From positions 1 through 39,792 of the forward strand of contig CASEJU010000074.1 in NCBI GenBank assembly GCA_949288335.1: a DNA stretch of 39,792 bases, read 5' to 3'. Source of the DNA: an uncultured bacterium. GTDB lineage: Bacteria; Bacillota_I; Bacilli_A; RF39; UBA660. Positions 9,969-28,877 of this stretch are shown here, in pieces. Positions within the stretch are counted from its first letter, which is position 1. Each line of letters opens with the position of its first letter. A program made the translations under genes and the position numbers. The notes beneath the pieces were generated by a model. The model made no database searches. It was given only the letters and a program-made list of their open reading frames with translations, and was not told where the DNA came from.

Positions 9969-12041
9969 TTATTGTGCACCATTTTTCTTAATGATGTCTT
10001 CAGAAATATTTTTAGGTACTTCTTCATAATGATCAAAGAACATAATAAACGTTCCACGTCCTTGCGTATTTGATCTTAACGATGTAGCATATCCAAACAT
10101 TTCTGATAATGGTACGTAAGCACTTATCTTAAGTGCGTTACCAACTGATTCTTGACCCATAGGACGTCCACGACGAGATGTAATATCTCCCATAACGTTA
10201 CCCATGTACTCATCAGGAACGGTTATGTCAACCTTCATGATTGGTTCAAGAAGAACTGGCTTACATTTGTTCTTAGCTTCTTTTAATGCAAGAGAAGCCG
10301 CAACCTTAAAGGCCATTTCGTTAGAGTCAACGTCATGGTATGATCCATCAAATAACGTTGCTTTAACATCAATCATAGGATATCCTGCAAGAATACCGGT
10401 TTTCATAGCTTCTTGTAATCCTTTATCTACTACCGGAATGTATTCACGAGGAACAACACCACCGACAATAGCATCAACGAATTCATAGCCCTTATCTTTA
10501 TTAGGTTCAAACTTAACCCAAACGTGTCCATACTGACCACGACCACCGGATTGCTTAATGTATTTACCTTCACAATCACCGGTTTGAGTTAAGGTCTCAC
10601 GGTAAGCAACTTGAGGTTTACCAATGTTTGCCTCAACGCCAAATTCCCTTCTCATTCTATCAACGATAACATCCAAATGAAGCTCACCCATACCAGATAT
10701 TACCGTTTGACCAGATTCTTGATCAGTTTCAGCTTTAAAAGTTGGGTCTTCTTCAGCTAATTTTTGTAATGCCGTTGACATTTTTTCTTGGTCTCCCTTA
10801 CTCTTTGGTTCGATAGCAATCGAAATAACTGGTTCTGGGATAACCATTTTTTCTAAAATTACCGGATGTTTTTCATCACATAACGTATCACCAGTTGTAG
10901 TGTTCTTAAGTCCTACAGCCGCTGCTATATCACCTGCGAATACTTCTTGTATTTCAGTTCTATTATTAGCGTGCATCTGTAAGATACGTCCAATTCTTTC
11001 CTTCGTGTTTTTGTTAGCATTTAAAACGTATGAACCACTTTTTAAAGTACCAGAGTAAACACGGAAGAACGATAATCTACCAACGAATGGATCAGTCATT
11101 ATCTTAAATGCTAAAGCAGAGAATGGTTCAGAGTCTGATGCATGTCTTTCTACTTCTTTATCATTTTCATCATGACCTTTAATTGATGGAATATCAGTTG
11201 GTGCTGGTAAATAATCAACAACCGCATCAAGCATTAACTTAACACCAATGTTACCAAGTGCGGTACCACACATTACTGGGAACATCTTAACAGCAAGAAC
11301 ACCTTTTCTGATTGCTCTTTTAATTAAGTCTACGCTTATTTCAGCTCCTTCTAAGTATTTTTCCATCAACTCTTCGTCGAATTCAGCAGCATCCTCAATC
11401 ATTTGGATTCTTTTTTCTTCAGCGATATCCTTTAAGTCAGCTGGTATTTCAATTTCAATTGGATTTTCTTCTGGTTTACCATCATACTGGTATGCCTTCA
11501 TGGTAACTAAATCTATGATACCGTTAAAATCTGATTCAGCTCCGATTGGCCACTGGATAGCTGTTGCTTTAACACCAAGACGTTGCTTAATACTTTCAAC
11601 GCTAGCTGCAAAGTCAGCTCCCATTTTGTCCATCTTGTTAGAGAAAACAAGTCTTGGTACGTGCATTTCGGTTGCTTGACGCCAAACGTTTTCCGTTTGA
11701 GGCTCAACACCATTTTGAGAATCAAGTACCGTAACAGCACCGTCTAATACCCTAAGTGATCTCGTAACTTCAATCGTAAAATCTACGTGACCCGGAGTAT
11801 CTATAATATTAAGTCTATTGCCCTTCCAAAATGCGGTAGTTGCAGCAGAAGTAATGGTAATACCACGTTCCTTTTCTTGTTCCATCCAGTCCATCTGTGA
11901 TTCACCATCATGGGTTTCACCAATCTTATGAATCTTGTGAGTATGGAACAAAACACGCTCAGTACAAGTTGTCTTTCCGGCGTCAACGTGAGCCATAATA
12001 CCAATGTTACGAGTGTTTTCTAATGAATATTCACGAGCCAT
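9969..12041 (-). CDS. fusA: Elongation factor G
   Basis: [17 protein letters not shown] and NKMD are present. I placed the start at MAREYSL (ATG at 12041) because GGAG lies upstream. The track start at 12062 would overlap rpsG. Confidence 0.97.
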
Positions 12042-13335: not shown

Positions 13336-13391
13336 ATTCATAGCTCCTTTCGCCATGACTTACATAAAGTCATAGATTTAAAATCTTTAAT

Positions 13392-24768: not shown

Positions 24769-26742
24769 ATGAAACATGTAAAAATAATTTGTAAAACGCT
24801 AATCGCCTTAATGATTATATTTTGCACGTGTTACACCATACTCTTTTTATGTGCTAAATATGGCTCTAAAATAGACATAGAAAATTCAAATAGTATATAC
24901 ATGTATGATAAGAATGGAAAAAGCTTCTACGAAGGCAACAACGGTACTAAAAAATGGATAAAACTAAAAGACATATCAAAGAATTTAATAAATGCAACAA
25001 TATATTCGGAAGATAAAAATTTTTATGAACATAACGGTTTTGACATACCAAGAATAATAAAATCTACCTTAATTAACATCAAATCAAAAGATTTAAAACA
25101 AGGAGCATCAACGATAACCCAGCAATACGCAAGAAATTTATTTCTAACGTTTGATAAGACATGGGAACGAAAAATAAAAGAAGCTTGGTATGCATTTAAA
25201 CTAGAAACCCAGTACTCCAAAGATGAAATACTAGAAGGATATTTAAATACCATAAATTATGGAAATGGAATATTAGGAATTGAAAACGCAGCAGAATATT
25301 ATTTTAACAAATCCGCTAAAGACTTAAGTTTAGCTGAAAGCACAATGCTGGCTGGAATACCAAAATCACCAGATAATTACTCGCCATTAAACGATGAGGC
25401 AGCTGCTAAAAAAAGACAAAAAGAAATATTAAAATCTTTGGTTAATAACGGAATAATATCTGAAAAAACAATGGAAGATACCATAAATGTAAAATTATCT
25501 TACTATGGAAAAAAAGAGAACTTAAACTTATCTACTTTAATGTATTATCAAGACGCGGTTATAAGAGAATTACAGGACCTTAAAATAGTAAGTGAAGATT
25601 CTATTAAACAAGAGGGACTAAAAATATACACAAACCTTGATATAGAAGCACAAACATCACTAGAAGACGCAATAAAAAACAACCTAGAAAATAAAGATAA
25701 AATGCAAACAGCAGCGGTAATGATTAATCCTAATAACGGAGCGATAATTGCCCTTGCCGGTGGTAAAGACTACTCTAAATCACAATATAACAGGGCCGTG
25801 CAATCAAAAAGACAAGTAGGCTCTACCATGAAACCTATATTATATTATGCTGCATTAGAAAATGGCCTTACGGCGTCTACCACTTTCTTAAGTAAACCAA
25901 CTACCTTTTCTTTAGGAAATAATCTTACCTACTCACCTAGTAATTACGGAGATATATATCCTAATGATAAAATCACCATGGCTCTTGCAATCGCTTATTC
26001 TGATAATATATACGCCATTAAAACGCATCTTTTTTTAGGAGAAGATACCATGATAAAATACGCAAAAAAAATGGGTATAACAAGTAAATTAGAGGCAAAT
26101 GCATCACTGCCACTTGGAACCAATGAATTGTCTGTTACCGAATTTACTGGAGCCTACGCAAGTTTAGCAAACTCCGGGAGTAGTGTTAAAGCGCACCTAA
26201 TAAATAAGGTAGAAGATGGCAATGGTGATATCTTGTATAAATTTAAAGACAACAAAAAGAAAGTATTAAATAAATCATATACCTATATACTAAGTGAGCT
26301 TCTGGCTAACACATATGATACATCTTTAATAAGCTACACCTCACCTACTTGTGCATCAATAAATCCTAAATTAACCAAAAAATACGCCGTTAAAAGTGGA
26401 ACAACTGATTATGATTTATGGACCGTCGGATACAATCCAGACGTTGTGGTAGGTGTATGGACTGGATATGATGACAATAGAAAGCTATCAAACAGCGAAT
26501 ATAAATATTCAAAAAACATATGGGCTGATACCATAGAAGGATACTTAAGAGGCAAAGATGCATCCTGGTATGAAAAGCCTGATAACGTAGTAGGAGTATT
26601 AACGGATGTGCAAACAGGAGAAGTTGCAACAAATGATTCTAAACTAAAAAAGATACTATATTATATAAAGGGAACGGAGCCCGGTTATAAAAGCAAAACA
26701 ACTAAAAAGAATGCTACAACCAAAAAAACGACTAGCGATTAG
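24769..26742 (+). CDS. Class A penicillin-binding protein (GT51 transglycosylase + transpeptidase)
   Basis: An N-terminal TM segment is followed by EDKNFYEHNGFD and GASTITQQYARN (GT51 motifs). STMKP (SxxK), YSDN (SxN) and KSGTT (KTG-like) follow. Confidence 0.93.
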   Translation: MKHVKIICKTLIALMIIFCTCYTILFLCAKYGSKIDIENSNSIYMYDKNGKSFYEGNNGTKKWIKLKDISKNLINATIYSEDKNFYEHNGFDIPRIIKSTLINIKSKDLKQGASTITQQYARNLFLTFDKTWERKIKEAWYAFKLETQYSKDEILEGYLNTINYGNGILGIENAAEYYFNKSAKDLSLAESTMLAGIPKSPDNYSPLNDEAAAKKRQKEILKSLVNNGIISEKTMEDTINVKLSYYGKKENLNLSTLMYYQDAVIRELQDLKIVSEDSIKQEGLKIYTNLDIEAQTSLEDAIKNNLENKDKMQTAAVMINPNNGAIIALAGGKDYSKSQYNRAVQSKRQVGSTMKPILYYAALENGLTASTTFLSKPTTFSLGNNLTYSPSNYGDIYPNDKITMALAIAYSDNIYAIKTHLFLGEDTMIKYAKKMGITSKLEANASLPLGTNELSVTEFTGAYASLANSGSSVKAHLINKVEDGNGDILYKFKDNKKKVLNKSYTYILSELLANTYDTSLISYTSPTCASINPKLTKKYAVKSGTTDYDLWTVGYNPDVVVGVWTGYDDNRKLSNSEYKYSKNIWADTIEGYLRGKDASWYEKPDNVVGVLTDVQTGEVATNDSKLKKILYYIKGTEPGYKSKTTKKNATTKKTTSD

Positions 26743-26749
26743 TCGTTTT
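26722..26749. repeat. Direct repeat copy 1 / terminator hairpin (contains the pbp stop codon)
   Basis: aaaaaaaCGACTAgcgaTTAGTCGtttt forms the hairpin ACGACTA/TAGTCGT. It is 26/28 identical to 28850-28877. On the minus strand it is followed by U7, so it also terminates the HEPN gene. Confidence 0.85.
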
Positions 26750-26773
26750 AAAAATATTTACATATTAATTATA

Positions 26774-28774
26774 TTATTTATTTATTTTTTTAAAATGTTG
26801 ATTATTATTTAATAGTGATTCCAAAAATTCATAATTATTTAATACTTCAATTAAATCTCCAAATGAAATCAAAGTGCTAAATTTTGAATTTTCATCATAA
26901 TTATCAGTTATTTTTAAATTGGTTTCGGCAATATCATTAAGTTTAGAAATCTCAATACGAAGCTTACCGTGAGCTAAACAATTTCTTATTTTGTTAAATA
27001 TATCCATATTCACATTATTATAGTCATATTTATTAGCTGTACCATTCAATATTTCTGAAACACATAATATTTGTTTTTTTAATTTAATTAATTGATTTTC
27101 TTTCTTACTTATATTATATTCTATATTTTTAAAACTTTTATCAGGTATTAAAAATTTTGATGCAGCTATTTTTAATAATAAAATATAATCTGAGCGATAA
27201 TTACTTATTTCTTTGTTCATCATATAAAATAACTCTTTTTTTTCATTTAAATAATCTTCATAAACTTGTTTAGGAAATCTTACAGTTTCCACTTTTATTG
27301 TAAATTTATTTTGATTATAACAAAATAATAATAAATTGTTTATCAATGACAGCATTATAAGCTCCATTTTTGATTTATAGTTTATATAATCTGATGCGTG
27401 CTCAACTAATCCACTATTTGAAATATTATTAATATTGATTATTTTTTGTAACGTTTTCTGCAAATAATAATCCTTATTATATTTCTTAAATATTAAATTA
27501 TTAATTACTTCTATTTGCGATCCTCTACTCAATTTATAAAAATAATCGGAATTCATTTCATCAATACTGTTTATAATATATTGAATATCTTCTTCCGTCA
27601 ATCTTTTAGAATCTAATTCATCAACACACAAATGTCTTTTCAATGAATTATTGCTTAATACCTGGCTCTTTCCCAGTTTTTTAATACTGTTAAAAAAATA
27701 TATGTCTAATCCTAAATCGTTATCCATTATCTTCTGTTCTTCTGGAGACTTAAAAATTTTTAATTTTATATTATCAACACCAATTAATTCAATACCATTT
27801 AAATAGTTAATAAGTGACTCTTTTGTAAATGGAGTTCTATTAAAGACTGAATCGTTATCTAATATCACTGGCAAAGCACCTTCCAAGAAATAATAGTTAT
27901 ATAAATGATTAAATAAAGACATAAGATGAATTTTCTTAATAGTAAAATTCATTCTATTTTTACCTTCATTGTAGAATTCAACGTTACCATTTTCCAAAAC
28001 TTTATAATTAGAGTGTGCTATGCAATTTCTTATCATTCTAATTATTTTTTTATAATCAATATTACCATTAGTAAGAATAGCATTGTTTGATTCATTAAGT
28101 TCATCAATTCCAAAATCAAATATTAAGACAAATTTCATTAAATCTATTATATTTTGAGGAATAAAATCTAATTTATTATCTAACATTAGCAATTGTGTTG
28201 ATAAGAATATCATATCCAAGTTATTATCCATATTATTATAAATATCATTGAGCATAAAACTCTTCTGTATTAATTTATTCAATACAAACTTATCATTTTG
28301 AGAAATAGTCATATTATTTAATAAAATTAATAAAGTTTTAACATTTGTACTAGCATATTCCAACATAGTATTATTTGATTTTAAGGATTCTATTCTAATT
28401 TCACTTAAATCACCTAGTTTATCATTTAGTTGATACTCTTTATAAAAAATATTATAAGTTGAAACTTCGCTATAAATATCAATATCAAAAACATTTCCAT
28501 CATCAATTATAGTTAGTATAAAACTATTTGTTGCATTAACACCATATTTCTTCATTTTATCAATACTGTATAAGTCATTCAATTCTATATTGTCTAAAAA
28601 AGTAGATACATTTATACCATTGATTTTAGACACTTCTAGCAATTTTCTATTTTCTTCCTTTAATAAAAAATTAAATGCATATAATTTATCATTTATTATC
28701 TTAAATTTTAGGCCTAGGCGATCTTTATTATTAAATATATTTATAATACTATCAAATCTATATATATCTAACAC
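26774..28774 (-). CDS. Orphan tandem-HEPN protein (two RNCxAH motifs), putative RNase / defence effector
   Basis: 666 aa, with a GTG start 7 nt after AGGAGG. AGA AAT TGC ATA GCA CAC (28030-28013) encodes R249-N-C-I-A-H254. AGA AAT TGT TTA GCT CAC (26986-26969) encodes R597-N-C-L-A-H602. Each motif is followed 44-50 aa later by NY[YE]FLE. The rest of the protein matched nothing I recognise. Confidence 0.7.
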   Translation of the reverse strand: MLDIYRFDSIINIFNNKDRLGLKFKIINDKLYAFNFLLKEENRKLLEVSKINGINVSTFLDNIELNDLYSIDKMKKYGVNATNSFILTIIDDGNVFDIDIYSEVSTYNIFYKEYQLNDKLGDLSEIRIESLKSNNTMLEYASTNVKTLLILLNNMTISQNDKFVLNKLIQKSFMLNDIYNNMDNNLDMIFLSTQLLMLDNKLDFIPQNIIDLMKFVLIFDFGIDELNESNNAILTNGNIDYKKIIRMIRNCIAHSNYKVLENGNVEFYNEGKNRMNFTIKKIHLMSLFNHLYNYYFLEGALPVILDNDSVFNRTPFTKESLINYLNGIELIGVDNIKLKIFKSPEEQKIMDNDLGLDIYFFNSIKKLGKSQVLSNNSLKRHLCVDELDSKRLTEEDIQYIINSIDEMNSDYFYKLSRGSQIEVINNLIFKKYNKDYYLQKTLQKIININNISNSGLVEHASDYINYKSKMELIMLSLINNLLLFCYNQNKFTIKVETVRFPKQVYEDYLNEKKELFYMMNKEISNYRSDYILLLKIAASKFLIPDKSFKNIEYNISKKENQLIKLKKQILCVSEILNGTANKYDYNNVNMDIFNKIRNCLAHGKLRIEISKLNDIAETNLKITDNYDENSKFSTLISFGDLIEVLNNYEFLESLLNNNQHFKKINK

Positions 28775-28796
28775 AAATTCACCTCCTATTAATTAG

Positions 28797-28802
28797 ATTA
28801 TA
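28797..28802 (-). promoter_or_regulatory. -10 box (TATAAT) upstream of the tandem-HEPN gene
   Basis: The minus strand reads aaatatagTATAATctaattaatAGGAGGtgaatttGTG. No convincing -35 was seen (TAGTAA at 17-nt spacing). Confidence 0.45.
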
Positions 28803-28849
28803 CTATATTTTTTACCAATTTACTACACGGCCTATATTTTAAACGTATT

Positions 28850-28877
28850 AAAAAAACGACTAACAATTAGTCGTTTT
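28850..28877. repeat. Direct repeat copy 2 / terminator hairpin (contains the ftsH stop codon)
   Basis: aaaaaaaCGACTAacaaTTAGTCGtttt differs from copy 1 only at two loop positions. On the minus strand it is followed by U7, which makes it the ftsH terminator. Confidence 0.85.

Follow-up and report, generated by a model that had tools for sequence, protein, structure and literature searches.

In the present study we analysed a 39,792-nt stretch of DNA from an uncultured bacterium (contig CASEJU010000074.1; hereafter the window), with the focus on a single minus-strand open reading frame (ORF) at positions 26774..28774, a range that includes the stop codon. Judged from motif and profile comparisons, its product of 666 amino acids (aa) very probably contains a pair of HEPN-type modules akin to the pEK499_p136 family, and the gene that encodes it is an accessory, mobile gene. 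On balance, we lean towards the view that the protein would be a self-contained, self-gated tandem-HEPN ribonuclease (RNase) acting as a conflict or defence effector. The accessory and mobile nature of the gene is much more secure than this overall picture, and an anti-phage role is less secure than it. An initial annotation, made from the letters of the sequence, had already described a standalone two-HEPN nuclease; its motifs, internal duplication, solitary setting and non-housekeeping character were borne out by our analysis, and its suggestion of a Cas13-like relative was not.

Two conserved HEPN-type motifs in an internally duplicated protein

The ORF starts with a GTG codon (28774-28772), and its product contains only 15 Arg and 7 His residues. 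Direct reading of the sequence located motif 1, RNCIAH (R249-H254; 28013..28030, minus strand), and motif 2, RNCLAH (R597-H602; 26969..26986, minus strand), exactly where the initial annotation had placed them. Such a pair is seldom produced by chance: two RNxxxH motifs appeared in 0.03% of sequence shuffles (P about 3e-4), and two Rx4H motifs in 0.8%. Across 28 homologs, R249, N250, A253, H254, R597, A601 and H602 were each at least 90% conserved. The R, A and H of motif 1 were invariant in the subgroup alignments A3 and A4, which represent two distant subgroups of ~580 and ~800 aa, and those of motif 2 in the alignments A2, A3 and A4. Both R[N/H/D]xxAH motifs were kept in nearly all full-length relatives, the residue after R being N in motif 1 (H in some distant relatives, rarely K) and N, D or H in motif 2. 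The invariance of R and H, which the initial annotation had singled out for checking, held for most of the family and failed in a few distant full-length relatives (P0077, P0093 and P0110) that lack motif 1 or both motifs. These three may be inactivated or repurposed forms of the tandem architecture.

The signature of the HEPN superfamily is Rx4-6H, with a polar residue after the R, mostly N, D or H, and the motif is located at the C-terminal end of a helix (PMC3710099). The two motifs of the window protein agree with this definition in their conserved Rx4H, in the N, D or H after the R and, in the AlphaFold2 (AF2) model, in their place at a helix C-terminus. The AF2 model of the 666-aa protein is confident (predicted local distance difference test score, pLDDT, 84.9; predicted template modelling score, pTM, 0.84). 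In this model the helices 241-253 and 582-601 end at A253 and A601, with H254 and H602 as the first residues behind them, and each motif helix is followed by a beta-hairpin and then by another helix. Profile-profile alignment of the two motif regions with hhalign placed motif on motif, beta-hairpin on beta-hairpin and helix on helix, at a probability of 85% and an E-value of 5.8e-6 for the close homologs, rising to 96% and 2.6e-9 when distant relatives were added. This alignment shows that the internal duplication is real, and it confirms the earlier observation of a like pattern downstream of both motifs.

The closest profile to these modules is PF18736, the HEPN pEK499_p136 family, which Anantharaman et al. 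2013 established in their HEPN survey (PMC3710099). When 20 isolated module fragments were scanned against 24,736 Pfam models, PF18736 was matched by 9 of the 10 motif-1 fragments and by 4 of the 10 motif-2 fragments (13/20 in total), with alignments spanning 40-90 residues and thus reaching beyond the hexapeptide motif. Small single-module relatives matched it with an E-value of 1e-5 and 25.8 bits, and the window's own module 1 fragment with an E-value of 0.0076 and 16.4 bits. As these scores lie under the gathering threshold of 26.6 bits, we treat the window protein as related to PF18736, not as a member; the Pfam profile check called for in the initial annotation thus gave a recurrent family and no score above its threshold. 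Minor fragment matches pointed to the RiboL-PSP, MAE_28990 and HepT HEPN families, and two distant relatives gave weak matches to the PADLOC model 'RTasHEPN' centred on motif 2. The full-length window protein had no PF18736 match at E<=10, and full-length scans of 28 family members against Pfam returned scattered noise only. Precomputed weak PF18736 labels, found on about half of the close homolog family and described as 'faint' for the window protein, were reproduced only with isolated module fragments. The full-length searches of the curated libraries gave a single match, to a model of ApyA, of the ribosomally synthesized and post-translationally modified peptide (RiPP) class (E 0.008, 26 residues around motif 2), which was dismissed as a motif-level coincidence.

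According to the AF2 model, the protein is built of four parts, all encoded on the minus strand. A beta-rich N-terminal domain (residues 1-105; 28460..28774) has its strands at residues 3-51 and 86-99 with pLDDT 87-94; it had no match in Pfam, the PDB or Foldseek searches and is a candidate for a sensory or regulatory role. HEPN-like module 1 (residues 136-300; 27875..28369), delimited from the model and the PF18736 fragment matches, consists of helices, the motif helix 241-253, a beta-hairpin (257-280) and a helix (281-295). It is followed by a middle helical domain (residues 301-455; 27410..27874), for which Pfam scans of the full protein and of the family members found no family match. HEPN-like module 2 (residues 456-657; 26804..27409), delimited from the model, PF18736 matches and homology to module 1, comprises long helices (460-576), the motif helix 582-601, strands (606-637) and helices (638-655). 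The 5' region of the gene (28775..28849, minus strand), read directly from the sequence, contains a TATAAT box (28802-28797) and a ribosome-binding site AGGAGG (28787-28782) ahead of the GTG codon; a scan for sigma-70 consensus promoters was uninformative in this AT-rich DNA of 22% GC.

The gene is a single-gene cassette inserted between ftsH and PBP1A

The neighbours of the gene in the window are ftsH, tilS, PBP1A, DUF1934 and argS, and no other ORF lies between it and ftsH or PBP1A. Base composition, alignment to the empty sites of three related loci (L042, L044 and L048) and presence or absence in 34 species delimited an inserted 2.1-kb single-gene cassette at 26750..28849 (minus strand). 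The cassette has a GC content of ~22% versus 30-36% in its flanks, and its non-coding DNA amounts to 75 nt on the 5' side and 24 nt on the 3' side of the ORF. Junction alignment revealed a direct repeat on either side. The left copy, AAAACGACTAATTGTTAGTCGTTTTTTT (28850..28877, minus strand), consists of the ftsH stop codon and a terminator hairpin; the right copy, AAAACGACTAATCGCTAGTCGTTTTTTT (26722..26749, minus strand), is the same hairpin, and its plus strand encodes the PBP1A C-terminus KKTTSD-stop. The 28-nt hairpin is present in a single copy in the empty sites, at about 11960-12040 of these loci, and in two copies in the window, with zero chance matches expected; these two copies are the only terminator-like hairpins in the region. 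In its single form, the 28-bp hairpin carries both convergent stop codons, that of ftsH (...END-stop) on one strand and that of PBP1A (...KKTTSD-stop) on the other, and it probably acts as a bidirectional terminator. Because the insertion duplicated the hairpin, ftsH and PBP1A are both intact, and the cassette has a ribosome-binding site and a copy of the terminator to itself.

The occupancy of this junction was then compared among 80 species retrieved with FtsH as the anchor. The gene order rpoC-tilS-ftsH-PBP1A-DUF1934-argS was kept in 34 of them (FtsH 84-97% and RpoC 89-97% identical), and in about 20 of these 34 ftsH is directly adjacent to PBP1A, with a gap of ~50 bp; the FtsH identity of these empty-site species is 85-93%. 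A homolog of the window gene occupies the junction in one species representative (54% identity), and the same protein was found at the same site in two further assemblies. Eight other species hold unrelated inserts of 1.5-6.5 kb there, and pattern scans found any member of the family in about 6 of the 80 species. The empty junctions, the flanking 28-nt repeats and the low GC content together identify the gene as an inserted single-gene accessory cassette.

The ftsH|PBP1A junction is itself a variable hotspot in this clade (loci L041-L073, around 11980-12040). Its cargos include sigma-70-type proteins of 459-666 aa (L058, L063 and L064), a four-gene ORFan operon common to L055 and L061, an 813-aa DUF4116 protein (L067) and other ORFans (L041 and L062).

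Relatives of the gene and their horizontal transfer at the secA site

In a large protein database, 29 clusters of close homologs were found, with 39-60% identity and lengths that nearly all fall between 664 and 689 aa. An exhaustive profile search of 1.84 billion representative proteins returned 90 relatives at E<1e-3. Among these are two subgroups, one of ~800 and one of ~580 aa, together with small proteins (130-210 aa) whose similarity is confined to module 2. The label 'orphan' given in the initial annotation is thus apt as far as significant matches of the full protein in Pfam, NCBIfam, PADLOC, PHROGs and PDB sequences are concerned, and it does not hold in view of these relatives. A search started from one small relative, P0096, returned P0096 itself as the sole hit. 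In another small pEK499_p136-like relative, P0095, residues 1-40 match the C-terminal end of a type I restriction-modification (R-M) specificity subunit and PADLOC PDC-S13, which suggests from the sequence that P0095 adjoins or is fused with hsdS. The genomic matches of the family and of both distant subgroups all belong to metagenome-assembled genomes (MAGs) of uncultured gut 'Bacilli' of human, rabbit, goat and mouse origin, together with Clostridium sp. CAG:710. By FtsH identity, the nearest named relatives of the window are Candidatus Aphodocola and Clostridium sp. CAG:594.

Homologs occupy many differing contexts, and no neighbour family was common to the 22 loci compared; a cluster of ABC-ATPase neighbours that appeared in this comparison was dismissed as paralogy noise. 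Five loci, which hold members of the 670-aa and 800-aa subgroups, lie just downstream of secA. Among them, two pairs of tandem-motif proteins are 97.7% and 95.3% identical, in genomes whose SecA proteins share 67.8% and 64.5% identity, respectively. Protein identities of 95-98% where SecA is only 65-68% identical indicate recent horizontal transfer among gut Bacilli that are only distantly related. At the DNA level, the first pair shares a discrete 2,551-bp block of 97.9% identity within flanks of ~69%, and in the second pair the start of the gene is the precise point at which the identity rises from 58-82% to 91-98%. The ratios of nonsynonymous to synonymous substitution rates (dN/dS) were 0.33 and 0.08 in the two pairs, which indicates that the tandem-motif protein is under purifying selection.

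The transferred block is bounded by direct repeats, each a decayed copy of a secA 3' end (...PCGSGKKYKQCCGK-stop) with its terminator; in L001 and L019 the repeats are about 240 and 124 nt long, including the secA 3' end. The secA-site spans cover 6198-10345 in L001, 4617-6300 in L002 and 1425-4560 in L019. In L001, a second, unrelated cassette with ORFans of 252 and 80 aa has accreted at the site. Beginning with the first repeat base, the sequences of L001 and L002 are identical; upstream, L002 holds a full integrative and conjugative element (ICE) with genes for a relaxase, a sortase, an HTH_17 protein and a tyrosine integrase. These observations identify the secA 3' end as an integration (attachment, att) site in related gut Bacilli. 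The cassettes that carry relatives at this site contain no integrase. At a further locus (L017, 6135-9746), homolog P0010 lies beside a gene of the Xre-type helix-turn-helix (HTH) class, two small ORFs, a tyrosine-integrase fragment and ftsK, a layout that looks like a mobile element.

We take the secA cassettes to be putatively mobilisable units, comparable to the cis-mobilisable, integrase-less, att-flanked islets that are accreted next to ICEs in the CIME manner in the Streptococcus ICE literature. Like these, they are bounded by direct repeats of the target 3' end and stand in tandem with another cassette and with an integrase-bearing ICE. Direct repeats from the 3' end of the target gene and the lack of an internal recombinase were seen in the window, L001 and L019, and an att site that is also used by an integrase-encoding element at the secA site only. 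The insert at the ftsH|PBP1A junction differs in that it shows only a 28-nt hairpin duplication, with no ICE nearby.

Absence of partner genes and comparison with known systems

The initial annotation had stated that the window holds no CRISPR array, cas1/cas2, MNT or antitoxin partner and no CARF or SAVED sensor, and none was found here either. No CRISPR-like array or tandem repeats were detected in the window, no MNT, cas, CARF or SAVED gene lies near the gene, and the comparison of 22 loci yielded no conserved partner gene. Rfam scans returned no relevant family in the window and no match in L001 and L019; in particular, RF03085, the non-coding RNA antitoxin of AbiD/AbiF systems, was found in none of the three. 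The family likewise had no match to Abi_2 (PF07751), one small relative reaching an E-value of 0.055. The HEPN-MNT arrangement of HepT/MntA is also absent, as the neighbours of the gene are ftsH and PBP1A and no MNT gene is adjacent.

The presence of two HEPN motifs in one polypeptide is the layout of Cas13, including the compact Cas13an, and it is the reason why an intramolecular composite site would be expected in the window protein. Cas13 has been proposed to originate from the fusion of two related HEPN genes (PMC12165695), and its origin has been traced to AbiD/F. In contrast, the window family has no array, CRISPR RNA (crRNA), or sequence or structure similarity to Cas13, and its affinity is to pEK499_p136, not to AbiD/F. 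No PADLOC model, cas models included, matched, and no Cas13 chain appeared in the Foldseek lists for the whole chain or for module 1 against the PDB. The short non-coding ends of the cassette, 75 nt before and 24 nt after the ORF, leave no room for a guide RNA. The Cas13-like reading offered by the initial annotation was therefore given up, as it found no model or structure match, no array and <100 nt of non-coding DNA. CnuE, of the type III-A CoCoNuT, is a non-CRISPR protein that has been reported with two HEPN domains; it differs in belonging to a multi-gene McrBC-type system and in its second HEPN, which is shortened to RxH, whereas both motifs of the window protein are canonical and the gene stands alone.

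The window family has a conserved Rx4H in common with pEK499_p136, which is also, below the gathering score, the recurrent best profile hit of its two modules and of the small relatives. The pEK499_p136 family has been linked to R-M and Pgl defence contexts (PMC3710099). The members known so far have a single domain and are encoded in R-M or Pgl operons, whereas the window protein holds two copies and extra domains in 666 aa and has no R-M neighbour. Among single-gene systems, ApeA resembles it as a partnerless gene of ~600 aa that combines a HEPN nuclease bearing RNxxxH with an uncharacterised sensor domain. However, ApeA has one C-terminal HEPN domain, forms its site by homodimerising and is widespread across phyla, whereas the window family is confined to certain gut Bacilli and the window protein has no match to PADLOC ApeA. 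HepS ('HEPN solo' of the Gifsy-1 prophage) and DARNA / PD-T7-3 are standalone abortive-infection HEPN anticodon nucleases with no partner gene; they are made constitutively, self-inhibited and activated by a phage product, and are often found on mobile elements. They differ from the window family in having one HEPN per chain, in assembling as a tetramer or dodecamer and in lacking any sequence relation to it; moreover, HepS is located on a prophage and the window gene on a minimal chromosomal cassette. ApeA, HepS and DARNA sense RNA structure, tail-tip protein and SSB-bound single-stranded DNA through a fused domain. The window gene shares with this type of defence its standalone character, the fusion of HEPN-like modules to non-catalytic domains, and its accessory, mobile distribution. 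In our comparison, the window protein is nearest to pEK499_p136 in sequence and resembles Cas13 and CnuE in architecture, and in its proposed function it most resembles single-gene HEPN defence proteins.

Proposed mechanism and alternative explanations

The best reading of these data is a mobile one-gene module for conflict or defence, akin to ApeA, HepS or DARNA, in which a layout of two HEPN domains per chain may have arisen independently of Cas13. The active site of HEPN proteins is composite, being built from two HEPN domains, and it cuts RNA without metal ions (PMC3710099); from this biology we infer that the two modules could pair into one RNase site. In the proposed mechanism, the modules would pack within one chain to form a composite R/H active site, instead of homodimerising, and the N-terminal and middle non-catalytic domains would hold this site shut until a trigger is detected, which most likely would arise from infection by a phage or mobile element. 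The activated enzyme would then cut RNA (tRNA, mRNA or rRNA), so that growth or the replication of the invader would stop, or it would degrade the invader's RNA directly. A bolder form of this proposal describes a new, guide-independent family of single-chain tandem-HEPN immune nucleases, which would have originated by an independent fusion of two pEK499_p136-type domains, would use protein-based sensing and would travel on a minimal integrase-less cassette at the terminator or 3' end of ftsH and secA in reduced-genome gut Bacilli. We put it forward tentatively and regard it as falling somewhat short of probable.

Several results weigh against the proposed tandem-HEPN effector. No HEPN model, PF18736 included, was matched at its gathering score or above, and the full-length window protein found nothing meaningful in Pfam, NCBIfam, PADLOC, PHROGs or PDB sequences. 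Foldseek returned no HEPN protein and nothing significant, either for the whole chain against the PDB and BFVD or for the separately modelled module 1 against the PDB, the best E-values being 0.29-0.4. When the whole family and the motif-2 module were used as profiles against PDB sequences, the returns were confined to coiled-coil and designed-helix noise. It is also possible that the modules pair between chains rather than within one. As to a role in defence, nothing connects the gene to phages, and there are no recognisable defence genes nearby or among the hotspot cargos, which are ORFans or sigma-70-like; support from a defence island was accordingly dropped, since these cargos speak neither for nor against it. 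Members of the family come from a single group of uncultured gut Bacilli; none was found in IMG/VR viral contigs, GenBank phages or PLSDB plasmids, and a phage-borne or plasmid-borne origin was rejected on that ground. The 54% identity to the sister-species homolog is no more divergent than that of TilS or DUF1934, and fast evolution as a signal of an arms race was rejected for this reason.

The results on fold bear most directly on the possibility that the protein is no HEPN-fold RNase and that the R-N-x-x-A-H helix ends sit on another helical scaffold with a nucleic-acid-binding or structural role, the Pfam matches being driven by the motif. The sub-gathering scores, the Foldseek searches without a HEPN fold and the coiled-coil-like matches from long helices are what this possibility would predict. 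On the other hand, 13 of 20 fragments picked the same one out of 24,736 models with alignments far longer than the motif, R and H are invariant across deep divergence, and the motif position and the N, D or H after R fit the HEPN definition. HEPN families are, in addition, highly divergent and hard to detect by structure search (PMC12165695). We consider a non-HEPN scaffold improbable, with the shared model choice of the fragments lowering its standing and the negative structure searches sustaining it. The HEPN claim of the initial annotation is accordingly retained with regard to the conserved catalytic-type motifs and the PF18736 affinity of both modules, and qualified with regard to the sub-threshold scores and to the structure search it had called for, in which Foldseek yielded neither a HEPN nor a Cas13 structure.

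The setting of the gene raises a different question, namely whether the module serves the mobile element rather than immunity, by stabilising its cassette or island (post-segregational killing or exclusion) or by attacking rivals at the same att site. This is the weightiest of the alternatives, and we still hold it to be unlikely. The att-flanked cassettes that carry the gene hold no other cargo and have accreted, together with further cassettes and an ICE, at the 3' end of secA; the gene was transferred recently between genomes, and no defence-island neighbours were seen. However, many single HEPN genes borne by mobile elements, such as HepS, are genuine phage defences. A classical addiction module is impossible here, because a single protein cannot work as one when it is accompanied by no antitoxin gene and the cassette is too small to encode an antitoxin RNA. 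That the protein itself mobilises the cassette, as a nuclease or recombinase aimed at terminator hairpins or gene 3' ends, would explain the single-gene units, the lack of a recognisable recombinase and the duplicated, hairpin-containing target flanks; this is nevertheless very improbable. We know of no DNA transposase of the HEPN R/H kind, which counts against it, and the tyrosine-integrase ICE at the secA site offers a plausible recombinase in trans. HEPN-type R/H sites are, moreover, metal-independent RNases (PMC3710099).

The narrow lineage range of the family led us to raise and test whether the gene is a lineage-specific, vertically inherited housekeeping enzyme of RNA processing. Its core-gene setting (rpoC, tilS, ftsH, PBP1A and argS here, secA/prfB in other lineages), its presence in one copy per genome and the limitation of the family to one bacterial lineage would suit such an enzyme. 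The same junction is, however, empty in about 20 close species, and the pattern scans found a family member in only about 6 of 80 species; the identities of the gene and of SecA are strongly incongruent, and the insert combines a low GC content with flanking repeats. We therefore regard vertical housekeeping descent, which the initial annotation had named, for a family of known non-nuclease function, as fatal to its claim, as extremely improbable: the empty junctions and the SecA incongruence reveal an accessory, horizontally moving gene. Least probable of all is a degenerate or ancestral Cas13-type effector whose guide RNA is encoded elsewhere. It could draw on the two HEPN motifs in one Cas13-sized chain and on the two-HEPN fusion proposed for the origin of Cas13 (PMC12165695), and it is opposed by the missing array in the window, the missing PADLOC and Foldseek matches to Cas13, the single-gene cassette with <100 nt of non-coding DNA, and an affinity to pEK499_p136 versus the AbiD/F affinity of Cas13.

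Other features of the window and related loci

In several close species (L052, L053, L063, L065 and L068), the argS position downstream of DUF1934 holds a protein that is only 23-25% identical to the ArgS of the window, which suggests that an arginyl-tRNA synthetase of another type has taken its place. An Rfam L31-Firmicutes ribosomal-protein leader was recognised in the window at 13344-13375 (minus strand), with 34.1 bits against a gathering score of 33.3.

Significance of the proposed tandem-HEPN family

New HEPN defence families are reported often; no description of the present family was found in the searchable literature or in PADLOC v2. What appears to be new, as far as can be told from sequence, is a tandem-HEPN architecture among HEPN conflict nucleases, together with the unusual, minimal cassette on which it travels; its function is so far a proposal. 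HEPN RNases form the killing or arrest module in Cas13, Csm6, RNase L, ApeA, HepS and DARNA, and almost all of them need two chains per active site. Cas13 is the well-studied case of two HEPN domains per chain; a CRISPR-less family with the same layout, if true, would show that such fusions recur, and it would provide a natural parallel to the HEPN-HEPN fusion proposed for the origin of Cas13 (PMC12165695). The protein would then represent a compact, self-gated RNase whose activation logic is open to dissection and perhaps to engineering. The unusually clean single-gene cassettes and the two hotspots, one at the terminator between ftsH and PBP1A and one at the 3' end of secA, offer a route to further accessory genes in these genomes, and the family itself, if our reading is correct, would add a defence candidate for these poorly known uncultured gut bacteria.

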